A stretch of 32,000 nt of DNA from Acaryochloris thomasi RCC1774 (GCF_003231495.1 NZ_PQWO01000003.1:1-32000); one strand, 5' to 3'; positions 23,112-32,000 are shown, counted from the first letter of the stretch. Notes: generated from the letters alone by a model not told the origin. Translations and numbers: made by a program.

Positions 23112-23474
23112 TTGGATCAGCGGCACGTTGAAGTTTGCCCCGTTTATCTGCAGTACCCATGGATTTTTCTACCTCAATTAGTTTTGGTCGAAGTTGTTTA
23201 CCTTATTGGTCGTGACGTAGGGATTCCGACCGTGGTTAAATTCTTGAGAGGCATCTCTGCTAGTCGGTTTGAATTGATAGAAGCGACGGCAAAGAATATC
23301 AACCGGGCAGCCGACATCCTAGAGCAATACGCCGATAGCAAGGTAGATTTTGTGGATGCCAGCGTGATGGCAATCGCAGAGCGCCTCAACATCACCACTG
23401 TTTTGACGATCGACCGTCAAGATTTTAGCCTCTTTAGACCTCTGCACTGCCAGAATTTTGTAGTGCGACCTTGA
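23112..23474 (+). CDS. PIN-domain (VapC-like) toxin, probably inactivated by loss of its start codon
   Basis: The ORF track starts at TTG 23112, but the frame is open from 23019. It encodes ...SVIADSGFIVALANRLDQRH upstream, including the first conserved PIN Asp (23079-23081). There is no ATG, GTG or TTG before that Asp. The remaining PIN acidic residues are present (LVEV, DFVDAS, TIDRQDF). Confidence 0.65.
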   Translation: MDQRHVEVCPVYLQYPWIFLPQLVLVEVVYLIGRDVGIPTVVKFLRGISASRFELIEATAKNINRAADILEQYADSKVDFVDASVMAIAERLNITTVLTIDRQDFSLFRPLHCQNFVVRP

Positions 23475-23498: not shown

Positions 23499-26396
23499 AT
23501 GGCAGAAATAACACTCATCTGGCGAGTCTTAATTCTCTGTAGCGCTTGTTTCTTAATCGGTGGCCTACCGGTACCGAGCTGGGTTACCCGTATCTTGACC
23601 GGGAAGCGACTCTCTAAACTGGGGACTGGCAATGTCAGTGTCTCTGCCGCGTTCTATCACGGCGGCAAACCGGCAGGAATCCTGTCTGCACTTTCAGAGG
23701 CAGGGAAAGGGATTGCCGCAGTCTTGTTAGCCCGACAGCTATTTCCAACGATGCCTGCTTGGGAACTTTGGGGCTTGTTAGCGCTGGTTCTCGGTCGCAA
23801 TTTGATTGGGGGTGGGGCCGGGGCAACGAATACCTTTTGGGGATTTTGGGTTCATGACTGGGTAATGAACCTGATTTTTGTCTCTGGGGGTTGGGTGAGC
23901 TTTCACCTAGTGCGAAATCGGAAGAGATCGCAACTCATAATCCTCGCTTTGATGCCTATTGTCGTCGCCCTCCTGAGTAGAGACGGATCTAGAGTAATCG
24001 CTATGATGATGCTCAGTGGCTTTCTGGCCTGGACGTTCCTTCGTAAACCGGATGACTTAGAAATGTCAGCAACTCAGGGAAAATCTGACAAGATGCTGCG
24101 GTGGATGCAGCGAGATCGCAAACCTCTCTCTCTTAACCAGCAATTGGACACCCCTCAGGTGGGTCAAAAAGCGGCGACACTCGCTCAACTCAAGCAGTGG
24201 GGCTATGCGGTGCCGGACGGCTGGGTGCTCCCCGTCAACGGAGATGCGAAAGCTCTGATGGCACAGATTCAGTGCTCACCCGAACAGCCCGTCGTCGTGC
24301 GATCCTCAGCGGTCGGTGAAGACTCTGAAGAAGCTTCAGCGGCAGGGCAGTATGAGTCGATTTTGCATGTCATTAGTCAGGGGGCGTTGGGGGATGCGAT
24401 CTCAACTTGCCTCAGTTCTTACAACAGCGAAGGTGCTCAACAATATCGGCAGGACCGCCAGCTCACGGAAACCGCCATGGCCGTCCTCGTGCAGCAACAG
24501 GTGCAGGGCGTTGTCTCCGGCGTTGCCTTCAGTCGAGACCCGATTGCCTGTCAGGGATCAGCAGTCATCATCGAAGCATTACCAGGAGACGCAACTCAGG
24601 TCGTATCAGGACAAGTAACCCCAGAACAGTATCGGGTTGAGATCCAGGATCGAGACTGGAGCGACATCGATAGCGATCAGCTTCCGGCTATGACAGAGCA
24701 GGTTGTTCTGGGCATGGAAGGGAGTGGTGAAGTTTCGACGCAGATTATTCAACAGGTTGCGGTTCTGGCCCGCCACCTCGAATCTCGCTATCACGGCATT
24801 CCTCAGGATTTGGAATGGAGCTTCGATGGTAAAACGCTATGGCTACTGCAGGCGCGACCCATCACCACCCTTTTACCGATTTGGACTCGCAAGATTGCCG
24901 CCGAGGTGATTCCTGGGGTGATTCGCCCCCTGACTTGGTCCGTCAATCAACCCCTTACCTGTGGTGTCTGGGGTCAGATTTTCTCCATTGTGTTGGGGGA
25001 TCGCGCTCAGGATCTAGACTTTGGTCAAACGGCGACGCTACACCACGGCTATGCCTATTTCAATGCCTCTCTCCTGGGTGAAATCTTCCGGCGGATGGGT
25101 TTACCTCCTGAAAGCTTAGAATTCCTCACCCGAGGCGCAAAGTTTAGCAAGCCTCCCATCCGGTCAACCCTGATCAATATTCCAGGGTTACTGCGGCTCG
25201 TACAGCGGGAACGACAGCTCCTGCAAGACTTTCAGGATGACAACACAGACCGATTCCAACCCGCCCTAAAGAACTTCCAGCAAGAACCCACCGAAATGCT
25301 GAGCGCTGAGCAATTGCTATCGCGAGTAGAACAACTGCTGGCGTTGCTGGAGCAAGCAACCTACTACAGCATTTTGGCTCCTTTGGGTTTTGCCGCCCGT
25401 CAGGCGCTCTTCAAAGTTCAAGACTCAGATCTCAACAACGACAGTTCACCAGAGGTGACTTCGTTACAGGACATCCGCAGCTTGGCAGCCGTCACCCCAA
25501 AGGTCGCAGCAACCGATCAGAACTCACTTTTTGCAGCCTTAGCCACAAGCACAGAAGGGCAAAGCGTTCTAACTCAGCTAGAACAGCTAATTGATCGCTA
25601 TGGCTATCTCAGCGAAGTGGGGACCGATATCGCCGTCCCCACCTGGAAGGAAGATCCCAGTCCTGTCCGTGAATTATTCACTCAGTTTTGTCTGTCTCCA
25701 CCGACAGCGCCTCAGAAGACCGTTACCTCAAGCAACTGGAAAACGAAGCAGGTCCAGAAACGCCTGGATCTCAAAGGACAAGTTACATCGGTCTACAGTC
25801 AGTTACTGGCCCATCTACGATGGTGCTTTGTGGCCCTAGAAGATCAGTGGCGGCAGTCTGGAGTATTAACAGATACCGGCGATATTTTTTACTTAGAACT
25901 TAACGAGGTTCAACAGTGCGTGGCTCAAACAATAGCGCCAGAGAGAGTTGCAGAAAGGATTCACCAACGCAAGCAGAATTTTCATCAGATCTCCCCCCAA
26001 GCGCCCTTCTTGCTTTACGGGAAAAATCCTCCGATGCCATTGACGCCCACCAAAATCTCAGCGGCGAAAATGATGCAGGGGATTGGCGTTAGCGCTGGGC
26101 AGGTTGAAGGCCCTGTTAAGGTGCTACTAAATTTCAAGGCTGGGGTTACTAACCTTGATCCCGCCACAATTTTAGTGGTTCCCTACACTGATTCTGGCTG
26201 GGCTCCCCTCTTGGCCAGAGCCGCAGGACTGATTGCAGATGTGGGTGGCCGACTGTCCCACGGTGCGATTGTGGCCCGCGAGTACGGCATCCCTGCCGTG
26301 ATGGATATTAATCAGGCGACGCAACAACTGCAGGATGGTCAGATTGTGCGCATAGATGGGCAACGGGGCACTGTTGAGCTGGTGGATGGCCCTTGA
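23499..26396 (+). CDS. fusion protein: PlsY-like membrane domain + PEP/pyruvate-binding ATP-grasp domain + phosphohistidine swivel domain
   Basis: 965 aa. Residues 1-190 resemble PlsY (LIGGLPVPSWVTRILTGKRLSKLGTGNVSVSAAF, KGIAAVLLA, several TM helices). Residues ~215-470 resemble the PPDK_N domain (VGQKAATLAQLKQWGYAVPDGWVL, VVVRSSAVGEDSEEASAAGQYES, DLEWSFDGKTLWLLQARPIT). The C-terminus is a PEP-utilizer mobile domain (ILVVPYTDSGWAPLLARAAGLIADVGGRLSHGAIVAREYGIPAV; His921 at 26259-26261). Confidence 0.85.
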   Translation: MAEITLIWRVLILCSACFLIGGLPVPSWVTRILTGKRLSKLGTGNVSVSAAFYHGGKPAGILSALSEAGKGIAAVLLARQLFPTMPAWELWGLLALVLGRNLIGGGAGATNTFWGFWVHDWVMNLIFVSGGWVSFHLVRNRKRSQLIILALMPIVVALLSRDGSRVIAMMMLSGFLAWTFLRKPDDLEMSATQGKSDKMLRWMQRDRKPLSLNQQLDTPQVGQKAATLAQLKQWGYAVPDGWVLPVNGDAKALMAQIQCSPEQPVVVRSSAVGEDSEEASAAGQYESILHVISQGALGDAISTCLSSYNSEGAQQYRQDRQLTETAMAVLVQQQVQGVVSGVAFSRDPIACQGSAVIIEALPGDATQVVSGQVTPEQYRVEIQDRDWSDIDSDQLPAMTEQVVLGMEGSGEVSTQIIQQVAVLARHLESRYHGIPQDLEWSFDGKTLWLLQARPITTLLPIWTRKIAAEVIPGVIRPLTWSVNQPLTCGVWGQIFSIVLGDRAQDLDFGQTATLHHGYAYFNASLLGEIFRRMGLPPESLEFLTRGAKFSKPPIRSTLINIPGLLRLVQRERQLLQDFQDDNTDRFQPALKNFQQEPTEMLSAEQLLSRVEQLLALLEQATYYSILAPLGFAARQALFKVQDSDLNNDSSPEVTSLQDIRSLAAVTPKVAATDQNSLFAALATSTEGQSVLTQLEQLIDRYGYLSEVGTDIAVPTWKEDPSPVRELFTQFCLSPPTAPQKTVTSSNWKTKQVQKRLDLKGQVTSVYSQLLAHLRWCFVALEDQWRQSGVLTDTGDIFYLELNEVQQCVAQTIAPERVAERIHQRKQNFHQISPQAPFLLYGKNPPMPLTPTKISAAKMMQGIGVSAGQVEGPVKVLLNFKAGVTNLDPATILVVPYTDSGWAPLLARAAGLIADVGGRLSHGAIVAREYGIPAVMDINQATQQLQDGQIVRIDGQRGTVELVDGP

Positions 26397-26661: not shown

Positions 26662-28149
26662 TTGTATCCTTACTTTCAGAACTGCAGTGCTTCCAGGTCA
26701 TTAAGGGAACCTAAGTATGTGGTGATCCTTATCGTTTTAGTGAAACAATTAGGGCTGAAACCATTCACTTTGCATTCTGGAACTGGTGTGGGTACAGCCT
26801 CAAGGTATTGGCAACTGGTAAGAATTGATGCCTCTGGTCAGAGAAGGGTTGATAGGATTCAAACAGCCTATGATTTCTTTCAGGAAGTCTTTGGCTCACA
26901 GGTCCAGGTGGATCAAGTCGCAGATGCGACGGTACAAAGCAAACTGATTCAATTTTGGAAGACGACCCAAAATTCTTCTCCGGCAGAGTGGTGTCTGCGT
27001 TGTTTTATTTCTAACGTGATTGACCAAGCCTGCGGGCAGTTAGAAACGCAGTTTGGTCGTCATCATGGCTTTAGTCGCTATGACCTGTTCCCCTTTGTCC
27101 TCAACGACAGTTACCCACCCCCAAGGCAGTTTCAGGGAAACTATCAATCCCTGGCCAGCCAGATCTTACAGACTTTTAAGCCTGAGAACGGTAGCCTAGT
27201 GACCTGGACCGTGCGGCGGGTACGTTGCGATCGCAACCTCAACAAATTTCTGCTAGAACACGGCATTTATCTGGTCAGTGACTGGGCAATCCTAAACGAC
27301 ACCTCACTTCAGCAGGTGGAGCGAATCCTATCAGAATTCCACAGCGCCACGGCCAGCGAAATCAAGCAGGCAATGGATCTTTTAAGCCGATATCACGCAG
27401 TCTACAGACGCGATCGCATCCAAAGGCGGCAGGCAGGGTTGAAGGGGCGTTGCTCAGAACCCACCGCAAACCAACTATCTCAAATAGCGGGTTCGGCAAC
27501 TGAAGCAGGCGTGATTCTAGCCCAGCTTCAGAGCCTTGCCGGACAGCTGCGTCGGTATCGAATCCATGCCCGAGGGGGACCAGCTCCGACAACGTCTCTA
27601 GATCAGCCCACGAATGAAAAGGGGCAGCTCCCGCAGCTTGCGGCTCCGGTCCCCGATCAGGCTGAAGATGAGCAGAACGCTTTTTTGACCCGCTACCGAG
27701 AGCAGTTCCGCCTCAGCTTAGATGAGGCGATCGGACAAATTCTCCGAAAGCAGCTTGAGTCTCGCAAGCCCCGTACAGCCGAGCAATTCCTTCAAGCTCT
27801 GTATCTGTTTCACTGTCGCGGACAGTCGATGACAGAGATTGCCCCCCAGGTGAATCTAAAGGCTCAGTATCAGGTCTCACGGCTGTTGAAGCTCAAAGAC
27901 CTCCGGGCCGATATTCGCCGTCAGGTGCTGCTAGATTTGCGCGATCGCGTGCTTCAACAAGCGAAGGTCTACGCAGATCCAAATCGTCTGCAGCAGCTCA
28001 ATGGTCAACTGGATACAGTCTTAGAAGAACAGGTTGAAGAGGTGATTCAAGAAGCTGCAGCCGAAGCCAGTGTTCCCCGAAACCGCCCTATTCGGAGTCT
28101 GTATGCCCGCAGGCTGTGTCAGGACCTAGACCAGAGGATAGAGAAATGA
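26662..28149 (+). CDS. divergent sigma-70-like / HTH protein (first gene of the CHAT-CHASE2 operon)
   Basis: 495-aa ORF with no in-frame ATG in the first ~230 codons. Candidate starts are TTG 26662, GTG 26719 (aaggga 10 nt upstream), GTG 26740 and TTG 26770. ILQTFKPENGSLVTWTVRRVRCDRNLNKFL parallels sigma region 2.3/2.4 (xKFDPxxGxxFSTYAxxxIR). GQSMTEIAPQVNLKAQYQVSRLLKLKDLRADIRRQ looks like a region-4 HTH. The stop overlaps the next start as ATGA. Confidence 0.55.
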   Translation: MYPYFQNCSASRSLREPKYVVILIVLVKQLGLKPFTLHSGTGVGTASRYWQLVRIDASGQRRVDRIQTAYDFFQEVFGSQVQVDQVADATVQSKLIQFWKTTQNSSPAEWCLRCFISNVIDQACGQLETQFGRHHGFSRYDLFPFVLNDSYPPPRQFQGNYQSLASQILQTFKPENGSLVTWTVRRVRCDRNLNKFLLEHGIYLVSDWAILNDTSLQQVERILSEFHSATASEIKQAMDLLSRYHAVYRRDRIQRRQAGLKGRCSEPTANQLSQIAGSATEAGVILAQLQSLAGQLRRYRIHARGGPAPTTSLDQPTNEKGQLPQLAAPVPDQAEDEQNAFLTRYREQFRLSLDEAIGQILRKQLESRKPRTAEQFLQALYLFHCRGQSMTEIAPQVNLKAQYQVSRLLKLKDLRADIRRQVLLDLRDRVLQQAKVYADPNRLQQLNGQLDTVLEEQVEEVIQEAAAEASVPRNRPIRSLYARRLCQDLDQRIEK

Positions 28150-29441
28150 CTGATATCTTCTCTGAATTAGTGTCAGATTTTGCGGTGGTGCAACCGCAGG
28201 CCATTGAACTCAAAGAGTCGCAGATTGAGCAGGCACTGCAGTGGAGTCAGGTTGCGACGAGTGAAGAGCAACAGTGGCAGCTTTATTTGCAGGGGCTGGC
28301 CTTGCAAAACTTTGAGCAGTGGCTTCAGACCCGAGACTCAGCGCTATCGGTACAGCGGATTCGGGGTTCCTTGCCTTCAGACGTTCCGTTTTTGCCCGCC
28401 GTCATGCTGGAGGTTGATCACTTCCGGCTCTGTTTGCTGATCAACGGTAGCTTGAGCGATACCCAAGTGACTGTTCCGCAGGCGGTAGTGGACCTGCCAG
28501 CATTTACGGCTCATATTTATGCACTAGTAGAGGTTCAGGAGGAACTCGATCAGAGCGTCGTAACGGCTTGTATGCGCCACGATCAGTTAGCACAGCAAAT
28601 AGCGACCCTCAAACCGCAATTGGACTGGTCTTATACAGTGCCGAGGAACTGGTTCAATTCGAGTCCCGATGATCTATTACTGTGGCTGCGTTGTCTTGCT
28701 CCAGAAGCTATTCCACTAGCTTCAACAATAGAGAGTAGCTCAAGACAAGTTGATTTGGAGCCACTACTGTCTCAACTGAAAACCAGCAAGCATCTATGGC
28801 AGGTGCTCAATTGGGAACAGGCGGCTGCCGTTCTGCAGAATAGTGAGCAAACTAATTGGCTACAGCGGGCGCTCCAGTCTCGTGATTTTGTCATGCAGGC
28901 ATCAGAAGCGATGGAGAATTTGGCATCAAGCCTCAACCCCATCAATACAGCCTTATGGTTACAGCAGACTGTAGAGAACTGGACAAGAGCCTGGGTCTTA
29001 GTGCCGTCTCTGGCCCTGCGGTCCAAGACTTCAGAGATGGAGCAGCCGGAGGAAATTTCAGTTCTGATCAGTGAACTGCAGCATCAGGGCGTTGAGATCC
29101 CAGCGACAGCGGCGGGGGCCTATCGAGATTTATCGCTAGGCTCAGCACAATTGCGTCTCTCCATTGTGGTGTGGTCTTCTGAAGCTGAATGGACTCTGCT
29201 GCTGCTTTTGGGACCGCAGCCCAAGACAGAACTCAGCAATACAGTGCGGCTACAGATCTGTGATGCAGACAAAATGCTGACGGACCTCACGCTGAGTCCA
29301 GAGAACCAGGAAACGTGTCTCTATTCAATGGTGAGTGGTGCTTTGGATGAGCAATTCTGGGCGACATTGATCCTAGAGCCTCCAGATCCGCAAACGATAA
29401 TGAAGCTGGCTCCCTTTAGGTTTGAGCCACCGCAGTCATGA
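28146..29441 (+). CDS. DUF1822-like protein
   Basis: I place the start at ATG 28146 (MTDIFSEL), which overlaps the upstream stop 28147-28149. The ORF track's 28116 is an upstream alternative. QQWQLYLQGLALQNFEQWLQ, LEVDHFRLCLLINGSL and AHIYALVEVQEELDQSVVTACM resemble the conserved DUF1822 blocks as I remember them. Confidence 0.6.
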   Translation: MTDIFSELVSDFAVVQPQAIELKESQIEQALQWSQVATSEEQQWQLYLQGLALQNFEQWLQTRDSALSVQRIRGSLPSDVPFLPAVMLEVDHFRLCLLINGSLSDTQVTVPQAVVDLPAFTAHIYALVEVQEELDQSVVTACMRHDQLAQQIATLKPQLDWSYTVPRNWFNSSPDDLLLWLRCLAPEAIPLASTIESSSRQVDLEPLLSQLKTSKHLWQVLNWEQAAAVLQNSEQTNWLQRALQSRDFVMQASEAMENLASSLNPINTALWLQQTVENWTRAWVLVPSLALRSKTSEMEQPEEISVLISELQHQGVEIPATAAGAYRDLSLGSAQLRLSIVVWSSEAEWTLLLLLGPQPKTELSNTVRLQICDADKMLTDLTLSPENQETCLYSMVSGALDEQFWATLILEPPDPQTIMKLAPFRFEPPQS

Positions 29442-31828
29442 GTGTGCGCCAGACCTATCGACTGAAGGTACAGCAGGTTGAGCAAGCTTGCCTTTTCGAT
29501 TTGTCTTGGGGCAAGGGGCAGCAGTTGTCGGCCCAGGTTAGCTATCCTGAGGCATTGGAGGCGGCTTATGCAACCTGGGTTCGCTGCTATCTTTTCTTTT
29601 ATAAGAACCTCTCTCTTGATGCAGCAACGGAACTAAGGGGAAAGCTGAAGGCAACGGGACGGATTACGCCTGTGGGTGTGGACTGGCAAGCTGAGCTGGT
29701 GCAGGCGGAGGCGGAGCTACTGCAGCAACTCCATCACTGGCTGCGGAGTGCGGAGCTGTATGAAATTCGGTCGGCTATTCGACAACCGGCTGATCTGTTA
29801 TTGGTCTGTGAGCCATTATCACTCGCACGGCTCCCCTGGGAAATGTGGGATTTAGGCAACGTCAGGATTGCTCGCTGTCCGGCAAATGTAAGGGCTACAA
29901 GTAATAGGTCACCTCACCAACGGCGGCGAGTGAGGGTGCTAGCGATTTTGGGGGATGAGAAAGGGCTCGATTTTGCTGCAGATCGCGCTGCGGTAAAGGC
30001 TCTAGCACCGAAGGCAGAGGTACAGTTTGTGGGCTGGCAGCCAGGGCTATCGATTCCTGAATTAAAGCGGCAAATTTGTGATGCGATTTCAGACCCTCTA
30101 GGCTGGGATATCTTGTTTTTTGCGGGCCACAGCAATGAAACAAACTTGACGGGAGGGGAACTTGCGATCGCACCCAACACCCTGATCACGATTAAGGAAA
30201 TTGCCCCCCACTTAAAGCAACTGCAGGAAAAAGGGCTGCAGCTTGCTATTTTCAATTCATGCAGTGGTTTGAGCATTGCGATCTCGCTGATTGACTTAGG
30301 CCTTAGTCAGGTTGCTGTGATGCGAGAGCCGATTCACAATCGGGTGGCACAGGTTTTTCTAGGCCGGTTCCTTAAGCATCTGAACAGTTATCAAGATGCC
30401 CATGATGCGCTATGTTCTGCGGTGGTGGGTCTGCAGCACGAAGAGAACCTTTCTTATCCATCGGCACACTTAATTCCTTCGTTCTTTCGCCACCCAGAGT
30501 CCAAGCCTTTTCGGCTACAGCCGATGGGGATAAGACAGTACATTCGACCTTGGCTACCCACGCGTCGAGAAGCTGTTACCTTGGCCATCCTCATTGTGTT
30601 GAGCTTATGGCCTTCACTGCAACGAACCTTGTTAGACCAGCGCATTCTGGCCCAGTCCGTTTATCGGATGCTCACAGATCAGATACCGGCTCAAACGACG
30701 CCACCGCTGACACTTGTACAAATTGATGATGCTTCTATTCAAAAGGCAGGCATCCGGGATCCAAAGCCGATGGATCGGGCTTATCTAGCTAAGCTGGTGG
30801 ATCGATTGGTCGCGCATAAAAGCCAGGTTATTGGAATTGATTATCTATTGGATCGTCAGCAGCCTCAATCGGATCCACTTTTAGCGTCTGCAGTTCGGTC
30901 TGCGGTTGCCCAACAAAATACTTGGCTCGTTTTTGCCTCAACAATACAACCCAATGGTTTAGAAATCGGGGTTAATCCGAAGACCGAGATTGCATCACCG
31001 ACTTGGAGCCTGCAAGCACACATACATGGTCAACCCACTCATATCGAGTTGCCTAGGGATGATTGCCGTCAAGCCTGTCCGTTCGCATATCTCATTGCGA
31101 TGTTGACGGCATATCAAGAGAATGGAACGGGTCTAGTGGGGCCTAGTCTAGAGAATAAGAAAAAGTTAAAATCGCATTTTCTCAATGATGCTCAGCAACT
31201 CTCAGAGCCAAAGCTTGACTTTATTCAGAAGCAACAACAAGCTTGGCTTTCACTTGGTTCTTACTATTTAAAACAGCAGTGGCTGGACCCAATTCTAGAT
31301 TTTTCGATACCACCAGAGCAGGCCTACCAGAGTATTCCAGCTTGGCAACTGCTAGCGACGAAGCAGGAAGAGAACTTGTCTTCAGTAGTAATCGTGGCTC
31401 CTGGCGGGTATAAAGAGGCTGGAGTCAATCAGTCTGATAACTTTGCAATACCTTTGGCTCTGCAGTTTTGGAGAGCATCTTTATCTGAGAATGATGGGAA
31501 TTTGGACAGAGCGGTTTTTACGGGCGGGGAGGCACATGCCTATATGGTGCATCATCTTCTGCAGAAACGCTTGGTGATTCCGATTCCAAATTTATGGATG
31601 GTTTTGCTGATGTCGTTTTTGGGAAAGGTAATCAGCTTAAGATGGGGTTATTCGCGACCTATTAAGTGGTGGCAAATACTTGGGGTGGGAACGGGTACAA
31701 CAGGTATTTATAGCCTGATTAGTTTACAGGGATATCTTTCAGCATCGGTTTTGTTTCCGGTTTTACTGCCGTCAATGACGGTTTTACTTTATCTTTTACC
31801 GCTTAGGGGTAGGCGTAATCATGGATAA
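29438..31828 (+). CDS. CHAT (caspase-like protease) domain fused to a CHASE2 extracytoplasmic sensor domain; membrane protein
   Basis: 796 aa. CHAT motifs LARLPWEMW, DILFFAGHS (His231, 30128-30130) and LAIFNSCSG (Cys275, 30260-30262). TM helix AVTLAILIVLSLW. CHASE2-type start LTLVQIDDASIQKAGIRDPKPMDRAYLAKLVDRLVAHKSQVIGIDYLLD. C-terminal TM cluster (LWMVLLMSFLGKVISL, ILGVGTGTTGIYSLISL, VLFPVLLPSMTVLLYLL). The ATG overlaps the upstream stop as ATGA. Confidence 0.82.
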   Translation: MSVRQTYRLKVQQVEQACLFDLSWGKGQQLSAQVSYPEALEAAYATWVRCYLFFYKNLSLDAATELRGKLKATGRITPVGVDWQAELVQAEAELLQQLHHWLRSAELYEIRSAIRQPADLLLVCEPLSLARLPWEMWDLGNVRIARCPANVRATSNRSPHQRRRVRVLAILGDEKGLDFAADRAAVKALAPKAEVQFVGWQPGLSIPELKRQICDAISDPLGWDILFFAGHSNETNLTGGELAIAPNTLITIKEIAPHLKQLQEKGLQLAIFNSCSGLSIAISLIDLGLSQVAVMREPIHNRVAQVFLGRFLKHLNSYQDAHDALCSAVVGLQHEENLSYPSAHLIPSFFRHPESKPFRLQPMGIRQYIRPWLPTRREAVTLAILIVLSLWPSLQRTLLDQRILAQSVYRMLTDQIPAQTTPPLTLVQIDDASIQKAGIRDPKPMDRAYLAKLVDRLVAHKSQVIGIDYLLDRQQPQSDPLLASAVRSAVAQQNTWLVFASTIQPNGLEIGVNPKTEIASPTWSLQAHIHGQPTHIELPRDDCRQACPFAYLIAMLTAYQENGTGLVGPSLENKKKLKSHFLNDAQQLSEPKLDFIQKQQQAWLSLGSYYLKQQWLDPILDFSIPPEQAYQSIPAWQLLATKQEENLSSVVIVAPGGYKEAGVNQSDNFAIPLALQFWRASLSENDGNLDRAVFTGGEAHAYMVHHLLQKRLVIPIPNLWMVLLMSFLGKVISLRWGYSRPIKWWQILGVGTGTTGIYSLISLQGYLSASVLFPVLLPSMTVLLYLLPLRGRRNHG

Positions 31829-32000
31829 GAATCGTGGGCTTTTGCTGGCTTTATTATTAGTCGTAGGGGGTGCTGAGCTTGGAGCTGCTCAACCAAAGAA
31901 AGAGGACTCTAACTCGAAGCCAAGACCAGTTAAGGTCCAGAATCAGAAGTCTTCCAGCAAGTCTCGCTCATTAATTAAGGGCATTATTCACGTTATTTTT
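31821..32000 (+). CDS. secreted protein, 5' part only (runs off the window end)
   Basis: My own translation from ATG 31821 gives MDKNRGLLLALLLVVGGAELGAAQPKKEDSNSKPRPVKVQNQKSSSKSRSLIKGIIHVIF. That is a signal peptide followed by a Lys/Ser-rich linker. It overlaps the stop of the CHAT-CHASE2 gene (31826-31828) by 8 nt and is open to position 32000. Confidence 0.6.
   Translation, partial: MDKNRGLLLALLLVVGGAELGAAQPKKEDSNSKPRPVKVQNQKSSSKSRSLIKGIIHVIF

Follow-up and report, generated by a model that had tools for sequence, protein, structure and literature searches.

A Candidate Receptor-Protease with an N-Terminal CHAT Domain and a CHASE2 Sensor in a Four-Gene Cassette of Acaryochloris thomasi

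We analyzed a 32,000-nucleotide stretch of DNA from Acaryochloris thomasi RCC1774 (GCF_003231495.1, NZ_PQWO01000003.1:1-32000; hereafter "the window") that carries a cassette of four genes encoding, in order, a sigma-like protein, a DUF1822 protein, a protein with CHAT and CHASE2 domains (the CHAT-CHASE2 protein), and a DUF928-like protein. Our analyses lean toward the interpretation that the third of these is a four-pass inner-membrane receptor-protease of the EACC2, caspase, and CHASE2 family that signals via its cytoplasmic CHAT domain. The locus is an ordinary representative of a family already known from computational work, and its architecture, its topology, and its neighborhood of sigma and DUF1822 genes have been published already. 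We add to this description the translational coupling of the four genes, the DUF928-like protein as the most constant neighbor, the insertion of TPR-CHAT genes in some relatives, and an invariant arginine, Arg67, in the N-terminal domain.

Architecture, active site, and membrane topology of the CHAT-CHASE2 protein

A previous sequence-only reading of this DNA had proposed an open reading frame (ORF) at 29438-31828 that encodes a protease domain, a first transmembrane helix (TM1), CHASE2, and a cluster of transmembrane (TM) helices, in that order and closed by a stop codon. The ORF is present, ends with TAA at 31826-31828, and encodes 796 amino acids (aa) that are 100% identical to the NCBI protein C1752_01133 of A. 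thomasi RCC1774. Pfam assigns CHAT (PF12770) to aa 94-339, with model positions 3-273 of 289 covered at 38.9 bits versus a cut-off of 24, and CHASE2 (PF05226) to aa 383-727 (E value of 4e-18, 66.3 bits versus a cut-off of 26.3). Pfam matched no TPR repeats in the protein, and neither it nor the three other cassette proteins has a match in NCBIfam. An AlphaFold2 model built with 51 homologs as input (mean predicted local distance difference test [pLDDT] score of 84, predicted template modeling [pTM] score of 0.64) has the order alpha+beta domain, CHAT/caspase fold, TM1, CHASE2, and three C-terminal TM helices. The proposed domain order is thus borne out by Pfam, hydropathy, and the model, which contains four TM helices in all. 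The boundaries given earlier for the CHAT core (29795-30487, aa 120-350) and for TM1 (30572-30616) likewise agree with the modeled caspase-like fold and with the hydrophobic core of TM1 (Table 1).

The first 120 residues had been described as an extra domain of unknown type. The domain is indeed an additional one, and it is kept in the alignment of CHAT-CHASE2 relatives. In the model, it consists of strands at aa 5-14, 17-24, and 28-35 and helices at aa 38-57, 83-102, and 105-114. It may correspond to EACC2, since the region up to about aa 114 agrees with how that domain has been described and with the architecture strings in the supplement of the same study (Kaur, Iyer, Burroughs, and Aravind 2021, eLife 10:e70394).

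Within this domain, Arg67 occupies a predicted disordered loop and is invariant in both alignments that we examined (51 of 51 and 84 of 84 sequences). It is part of an L-R-G-[RK] motif that reads LRGK in the window protein and LRGR in the family consensus. The loop varies in length between species, and the PCC 7336 protein has a Pro-rich insertion just before the motif. The conserved residues resemble a short linear motif and are possibly a site of self-cleavage; separase, a CHAT-clan protease, cleaves after Arg. An "R-G" motif shared by the DUF1822 and sigma-like proteins was also considered as a cleavage site and was dropped because it is not conserved in the DUF1822 protein of the window.

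At the other end, the protein stops 5 aa past its last helix with a basic tail, and its sequence terminates in RGRRNHG. Among 84 relatives, the tail beyond the last TM helix has a median length of 8 aa and never exceeds 25 aa, and therefore none of them has a C-terminal output domain, as the sequence-only reading had claimed for the window protein. The next gene, which begins at 31821, encodes a separate conserved family whose members bear signal peptides (C1752_01134) and not a split-off output domain.

The CHAT-CHASE2 protein is predicted to be an active enzyme with an intact catalytic dyad. The dyad residues His231 and Cys275, as well as Gly230, Asn273, Ser274, and Gly277, are invariant in all 84 sequences. 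A direct MAFFT alignment with seven canonical TPR-CHAT proteins (Pfam CHAT E values of about 1e-57 to 1e-70) places His231 in their "ATH" column and Cys275 in their "LSAC" column, which removes the concern that the dyad might not align with the CHAT-family His and Cys. The same alignment revealed that a loop of approximately 12 residues following the Cys of canonical CHAT domains is missing from the CHAT-CHASE2 family, and in a profile-profile comparison between the family and canonical CHAT, the alignment was confined to the part that follows the Cys. Sequence searches of the Protein Data Bank (PDB) with the full family profile, with sigma-like profiles, and with the isolated CHAT region returned nothing meaningful, and fold comparison alone succeeded. 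The top fold match is SAVED-CHAT (8tl0, E value of 1e-8), accompanied by the Csx29 subunit of Craspase (8eey, 8eex, and 7y9x, about 2e-8), separases, DdvA (8rot, 1e-6), and caspases-6 and -9 (about 1e-3). A 483-aa CHAT paralog is encoded downstream of a CHAT-CHASE2/DUF928 pair in one related locus (L030:10139-11587, plus strand). In this paralog, Gln replaces the catalytic His, and therefore it is probably a pseudo-protease.

The unusual domain order might be taken to indicate an artifact, such as a gene fusion, a mis-assembly, or a truncated CHASE2 receptor, or else a dead CHAT scaffold, and the paralog just described demonstrates that dead CHAT domains exist. We reject this explanation as having almost no chance of being correct. 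The same full-length architecture, with tails of at most 25 aa, is found at 575 or more genome loci, which also disposes of the mis-assembly or fusion artifact that the sequence-only reading had named as a danger. The dyad never varies among the 84 sequences, and the downstream gene, whose product has a signal peptide of its own, represents a different conserved family.

Charged residues support a cytoplasmic location of the CHAT domain. Averaged over the 84 sequences, Lys plus Arg residues number 5.05 in the 20 aa before TM1 (Asp plus Glu, 0.71), 2.07 in the TM2-TM3 loop, 0.01 in the TM3-TM4 turn or loop, and 2.48 in the C-terminal tail. This pattern follows the positive-inside rule for a topology with the N terminus inside, and no N-terminal signal peptide could be read from the sequence of the protein. 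Both observations favor the cytoplasm over a location of CHAT outside the cell. Because one TM helix precedes CHASE2 and three follow it, the N and C termini share one (cytoplasmic) side of the membrane, and CHAT is therefore placed in the same compartment as the ATP- or GTP-using outputs of canonical CHASE2 receptors. The architecture had been called inverted; this is true of the primary sequence order and not of the membrane topology. TM1 sits within a long modeled helix (aa 376-413, 38 residues) that continues into CHASE2.

Canonical CHASE2 receptors include the Sinorhizobium meliloti cyclases CyaD1, CyaD2, and CyaK, histidine kinases, GGDEF proteins, and cyanobacterial Ser/Thr kinases. The window protein resembles them in having its effector on the cytoplasmic side and in having TM helices, which hydropathy and the model place at aa 376-413, 718-737, 744-769, and 776-791. 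In contrast, its effector is N-terminal to TM1 rather than C-terminal to TM4, its output is a protease and not a nucleotide cyclase or kinase, and it has no C-terminal domain. The statement in the sequence-only reading that CHASE2 precedes the output in other receptors is accurate even for the cyanobacterial Ser/Thr kinases, in which CHASE2 is N-terminal to the kinase. Ser/Thr kinases with a C-terminal CHASE2 were considered as an "inverted" precedent, and this candidate was dropped because the literature gives the opposite order. The neighborhood of OUC13078.1 from Alkalinema sp. CACIAM 70d (Kaur et al. 2021, supplementary file 18) includes a protein annotated "TIR+TM+CHASE2+CHASE2+TM+TM+TM." A TIR domain, a second type of N-terminal effector, lies before CHASE2 in this protein, and therefore proteases are not the only effectors found in the inverted layout.

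The architecture is not new, since it had been described in 2010, 2012, and 2021. A metacaspase-CHASE2 protein was listed in Trichodesmium by Jiang et al. (2010). Asplund-Samuelsson et al. (2012) reported four TM helices in the Trichodesmium protein, one before CHASE2 and three after, and inferred a receptor exposed outside the cell with a caspase domain free in the cytoplasm. By description, the protein of Trichodesmium erythraeum IMS101 shares the N-terminal caspase fold, the C-terminal CHASE2, and the 1+3 TM arrangement of the window protein. It differs in having been described as a singleton "metacaspase" (Peptidase_C14) and without neighborhood analysis, whereas we find a large CHAT-type family. 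A Trichodesmium metagenome-assembled genome (MAG; locus L073) encodes a relative that is 45% identical to the window protein. Kaur et al. (2021) then defined a constant N-terminal module composed of the novel alpha+beta domain EACC2 and a caspase domain, followed by a variable C terminus, one variant of which is "CHASE2 with accompanying TM helices." Their supplement lists "EACC2+CASPASE+CHASE2+TM+TM," and the neighbors that they describe are ECF-sigma (extracytoplasmic function sigma factor) and DUF1822 genes. The window locus agrees with this cyanobacterial group in its alpha+beta domain, caspase fold, and CHASE2 and TM order, in its adjoining DUF1822 gene, and in its adjoining gene of the kind that those authors call an ECF sigma factor. 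Their main text does not include the DUF928-like downstream gene (for which there is only a supplement row, "TM+beta_rich"), the Arg67 loop, or the five-gene version of the cassette described below.

Table 1. Coordinates of the cassette genes and of the parts of the CHAT-CHASE2 gene in the window
Feature	Position	Strand	Evidence
Sigma-like gene (453-aa all-helical protein, C-terminal helix-turn-helix [HTH])	26788..28149	+	P0121, 100% identity over 453 aa
DUF1822 gene (431 aa)	28146..29441	+	PF08852, E 2e-33, 116 bits
CHAT-CHASE2 gene, C1752_01133 (796 aa; candidate receptor-protease; third gene of cassette)	29438..31828	+	ORF, Pfam, AlphaFold model
N-terminal alpha+beta domain (aa 1-~114)	29438..29779	+	AlphaFold model; EACC2 description of Kaur et al. 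2021
Disordered, length-variable loop (aa 59-82); invariant Arg67 codon 29636-29638	29612..29683	+	pLDDT <50; alignments
CHAT/caspase-fold protease domain (aa 118-351)	29789..30490	+	Pfam, fold matches, dyad
Catalytic His231 codon	30128..30130	+	Alignment
Catalytic Cys275 codon	30260..30262	+	Alignment
TM1 hydrophobic core (A379-L394), preceded by Arg/Lys-rich juxtamembrane segment	30572..30619	+	Hydropathy, charge counts
CHASE2 sensor domain, predicted periplasmic (aa ~397-717)	30626..31588	+	PF05226; pLDDT mostly 85-95
Three C-terminal TM helices (aa 718-737, 744-769, 776-791)	31589..31810	+	Hydropathy, model, charge counts
DUF928-like gene, C1752_01134, 5' end (248 aa in full; extends past the window)	31821..32000	+	Translation

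Operon structure and conserved neighbors

The four genes lie on the same strand and form a translationally coupled operon. Four-nucleotide ATGA overlaps join the sigma-like gene to the DUF1822 gene (28146-28149) and the DUF1822 gene to the CHAT-CHASE2 gene (29438-29441), and the latter shares an 8-nucleotide overlap, ATGGATAA, with the DUF928-like gene at 31821-31828. Consensus scans of the cassette gave no internal promoter or terminator above background.

We then surveyed the neighborhoods of 80 genome loci of relatives, where at least 3.2 kb of DNA was required for upstream counts and at least 0.9 kb for downstream counts. A DUF1822 gene is located upstream in 40 of 64 loci (directly adjacent in 30), and a sigma-like gene is present in 37 of 64. 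The most constant neighbor is the DUF928-like gene, which immediately follows the CHAT-CHASE2 gene in 56 of 72 loci. Its product in the window is a beta-rich protein bearing a signal peptide, the first 60 aa of which match P0447 exactly, and 15 of 23 orthologs of C1752_01134 match the DUF928 model PF06051. The family has a near-invariant Cys pair (alignment A4), which is consistent with an extracytoplasmic protein. Furthermore, neighborhood look-ups that started from two DUF928-like proteins led back to CHAT-CHASE2, one for each type of neighborhood (those with DUF1822 and those with TPR genes, as described below). A cluster of CHASE2 and DUF928 genes in Nostoc punctiforme was noted in a paper on WD40 proteins, which also reported an acid-stress response for sll1891, a DUF928 protein of Synechocystis.

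Given the constancy, signal peptide, and Cys pair of this partner, an envelope or secretion function can be considered. The CHAT-CHASE2/DUF928-like pair might monitor or process a secreted or surface substrate, such as an exoprotein of a two-partner secretion (TPS) system, with CHASE2 and the DUF928-like protein working in the periplasm and the protease tuning the pathway from the cytoplasm. A convergent gene for a TPS-domain exoprotein of 934-971 aa lies directly after the cassette in the two relatives closest to the window locus (L086:6141-8945 and L003:11394-14309, both on the minus strand), and an Omp85-family gene is also near the cassette in L003; the corresponding stretch of the A. thomasi genome falls outside the window. 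Among the other 80 loci, however, a TPS match was found at only 4, and the protease is predicted to reside on the cytoplasmic face of the membrane, apart from any secreted substrate. We therefore regard this explanation as improbable.

The upstream side of the cassette is more variable. Of the 24 loci that do not have DUF1822, 15 have a gene for a TPR-CHAT protein or a TPR-only protein directly upstream of the CHAT-CHASE2 gene. In several loci, the two arrangements are merged into a five-gene order: sigma-like, DUF1822, TPR-CHAT, CHAT-CHASE2, and DUF928-like. The inserted gene encodes 853-1555 aa and separates DUF1822 from CHAT-CHASE2 by about 3-5 kb in L040, L051, L070, L071, L084, and L085; its identity as TPR-CHAT was established by Pfam for L040, L051, L070, and L084 and by ORF size and position only for L071 and L085.

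These TPR-CHAT genes, which are thus inserted in at least six loci that do carry DUF1822, bring to mind a role in programmed death. Instead of signaling to transcription, the CHAT-CHASE2 protein could set off a caspase-like cascade of cell death or abortive infection, in which its release of itself from the membrane, or its activation of soluble TPR-CHAT proteases, would unleash broad proteolysis that kills or arrests the cell. Published proposals of a "conflict system" (Kaur et al. 2021) and of an orthocaspase cascade (Bhattacharjee and Mishra 2020) are in agreement with this idea, the best fold matches are to the defense proteases SAVED-CHAT and Csx29, and the invariant Arg67 is located in a disordered loop. 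However, the window operon carries no TPR-CHAT gene and has the sigma-like HTH protein instead. No PADLOC model matches any of the four cassette proteins. Moreover, the genes surrounding the cassette are of a housekeeping nature and do not form a defense island: the ORFs of at least 120 aa that were scanned in the rest of the window are housekeeping, transport, or PIN-domain genes, among them those for an M1 peptidase, SelO, a PaO/Rieske protein, CbiMQO, NicO, and ferrochelatase. On balance, we consider a death cascade doubtful for this locus.

Two other ORFs in the window were recorded. A PIN-domain ORF (23112-23474, plus strand) possibly encodes a toxin that is paired with an antitoxin. It shortly precedes an unusual fusion gene, and a PIN gene is also found near the cassette in Pleurocapsa PCC 7327 (L001). 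The fusion gene (23499-26396, plus strand) encodes 965 aa with a PlsY-like glycerol-3-phosphate acyltransferase membrane domain at aa 17-179, an ATP-binding domain of the phosphoenolpyruvate (PEP) synthase/pyruvate phosphate dikinase (PPDK) type at aa 260-458, and a PEP-utilizers mobile domain at aa 887-957.

Proposed signaling mechanism

In the receptor-protease interpretation that we favor, the periplasmic CHASE2 domain would detect an extracytoplasmic cue, perhaps together with the co-translated and secreted DUF928-like protein. A precedent for such an accessory partner comes from S. meliloti, whose CHASE2 cyclases depend on the accessory envelope protein NsrA to sense a protein signal. Binding of a ligand would alter the conformation or the oligomeric state of the TM bundle, and the cytoplasmic CHAT domain, attached at TM1, would become active. 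The sequence-only reading held that the signal must travel backwards through TM1. Relay through the helix that links TM1 to CHASE2 may be one option, and ligand-driven oligomerization of the protease domains appears equally plausible by analogy with caspases and SAVED-CHAT filaments. Oligomerization is a general mode of activation for caspases, and the SAVED-CHAT filament forms upon ligand binding; the best fold match, 8tl0, is titled as an activated SAVED-CHAT filament. Active CHAT might then cut itself, with Arg67 as the candidate site, and might also or instead cut the DUF1822 protein and the sigma-like protein. In relatives with a soluble TPR-CHAT protease, this enzyme could be a further substrate, and the output may be a protease cascade. 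The outcome would be either a transcriptional response, exerted via the sigma-like protein, or a cell-fate response. Along similar lines, Kaur et al. (2021) proposed that stimulus sensing activates the autopeptidase and that output occurs via TRADD-N and/or the sigma factor.

This proposed logic resembles that of two characterized systems, although here the sensor would be outside the cell and the protease inside. The first is Craspase, composed of Cas7-11 and the TPR-CHAT protease Csx29, which cleaves Csx30 that is bound to a sigma factor. The window protein shares with Craspase and SAVED-CHAT the CHAT fold and His/Cys dyad, and with Craspase the genetic association of a signal-activated protease with two partners, one sigma-like and one helical. 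It differs from these systems in having an extracytoplasmic CHASE2 sensor instead of one based on CRISPR or cyclic oligonucleotides, in being anchored to the membrane, and in lacking fused TPRs. No type III-E CRISPR effector is present among the scanned window ORFs, in keeping with the lack of a PADLOC match. The second system is DdvA-DdvS of Myxococcus (Bernal-Bernal et al. 2024), in which a membrane CHAT protein, the transmembrane anti-sigma factor DdvA, is likewise genetically coupled to an ECF-type sigma factor and for which signal-induced CHAT autoproteolysis has been proposed. DdvA, however, is a single-pass protein with a periplasmic TPR-CHAT region and a cytoplasmic zinc-binding anti-sigma domain (ZAS), whereas the window protein is predicted to have a cytoplasmic CHAT domain, a periplasmic CHASE2 domain, and four TM helices, and it has no ZAS domain.

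The transcriptional branch of this mechanism depends on the identity of the sigma-like protein, which Kaur et al. (2021) label an "ECF sigma factor." We found 965 homologs of this protein (P0121), none of which has a Pfam domain, and sigma-like proteins also had no match in NCBIfam. Its AlphaFold model (pLDDT of 85) is helical throughout, apart from a linker at aa 269-291 that is disordered. A phmmer search with Escherichia coli RpoE, the sequence of which was verified against 1or7, found no sigma genes among all ORFs of the fetched loci. Sequence profiles and the model are compatible with the ECF sigma label for the 453-aa protein but do not establish it.

Several observations weigh against the receptor-protease mechanism or parts of it. 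The topology is derived from hydropathy, charge bias, and homology, and cleavage at Arg67 was proposed from conservation and predicted disorder. Approximately 37% of loci do not have the sigma-like and DUF1822 genes nearby, and therefore neither protein can be an obligatory substrate. The absence of PADLOC matches leaves a defense role unsupported. With regard to the sigma-like protein, the Sigma70 Pfam models matched none of 47 members at E values of 1 or less, and Pfam searches of three members at E values of up to 10 did not establish a sigma factor either. Its top three PDB fold matches, all of them sigma-A chains from initiation complexes of RNA polymerase, have weak E values (0.1-0.5). 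Alignment to E. coli RpoE by hhalign is collinear and not significant, with a "TW" motif corresponding to sigma2.3-2.4 (0.37) and the HTH corresponding to sigma4.2 (0.02-0.08). Finally, our literature search found no experimental study of any caspase-CHASE2 protein.

A fuller version of the receptor-protease mechanism, which we judge unlikely, is that the operon constitutes a complete outside-in proteolytic signaling pathway, for which there is as yet no demonstrated bacterial example. The DUF928-like protein would be an obligate periplasmic co-receptor of CHASE2, and ligand would oligomerize the receptor, thereby activating the cytoplasmic CHAT domain. CHAT would process itself at Arg67 and would then cut the DUF1822 protein, which would act as an anti-sigma-like inhibitor, so that a highly divergent sigma-70-family factor would be released. 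If this were true, a "receptor caspase" would control transcription without regulated intramembrane proteolysis, and in relatives the same receptor would instead trigger a soluble TPR-CHAT executioner.

Family distribution and implications

CHAT-CHASE2 proteins form a large family that is almost entirely cyanobacterial. The top 120 database matches all have lengths of 787-882 aa; Pfam recognized both CHAT and CHASE2 in 105 of them and CHASE2 only in the remaining 15. When one genome per species was scanned, full-length relatives were found to be encoded at 575 or more loci, nearly all of them cyanobacterial. A search with just the N-terminal 360 aa gave 2013 clusters (50% identity) at E values of 1e-3 or less and 274 clusters at 1e-30 or less, and the best 150 of these clusters mostly comprise proteins of 780-880 aa. 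Among the matches listed, only two have apparent non-cyanobacterial assignments. One is a MAG contig labeled "Acetobacteraceae" (L031), which is probably a binning error. The other is P0095 ("Candidatus Sericytochromatia"), which, if the assignment is true, would carry the family into non-photosynthetic relatives of cyanobacteria.

Some genomes carry two CHAT-CHASE2 loci, as observed for Scytonema hofmanni UTEX 2349 (L040 and L060), Mastigocoleus testarum BC008 (L066 and L068), and a Microcoleus MAG (L012 and L035). In S. hofmanni, L040 has the sigma-like and DUF1822 genes and L060 has TPR-CHAT. The presence of both neighborhood types in one genome suggests that paralogous receptors may be wired to different partners.

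The window locus is a typical member of this family and not a discovery in its own right. Its value lies in providing a clean, minimal four-gene version of the cassette, in which the Arg67 loop offers a concrete prediction and the DUF928-like protein is a partner that has been little noticed so far. The use of a protease as the output of a receptor is a logic otherwise associated with eukaryotic death receptors. If the receptor-protease mechanism is true, a caspase-like protease would serve as the direct cytoplasmic output of a bacterial receptor, in the place that is usually taken by a kinase or a cyclase, and this would apply to a family that counts 575 or more species-level loci and, for its N-terminal module, about 2000 clusters at 50% identity.

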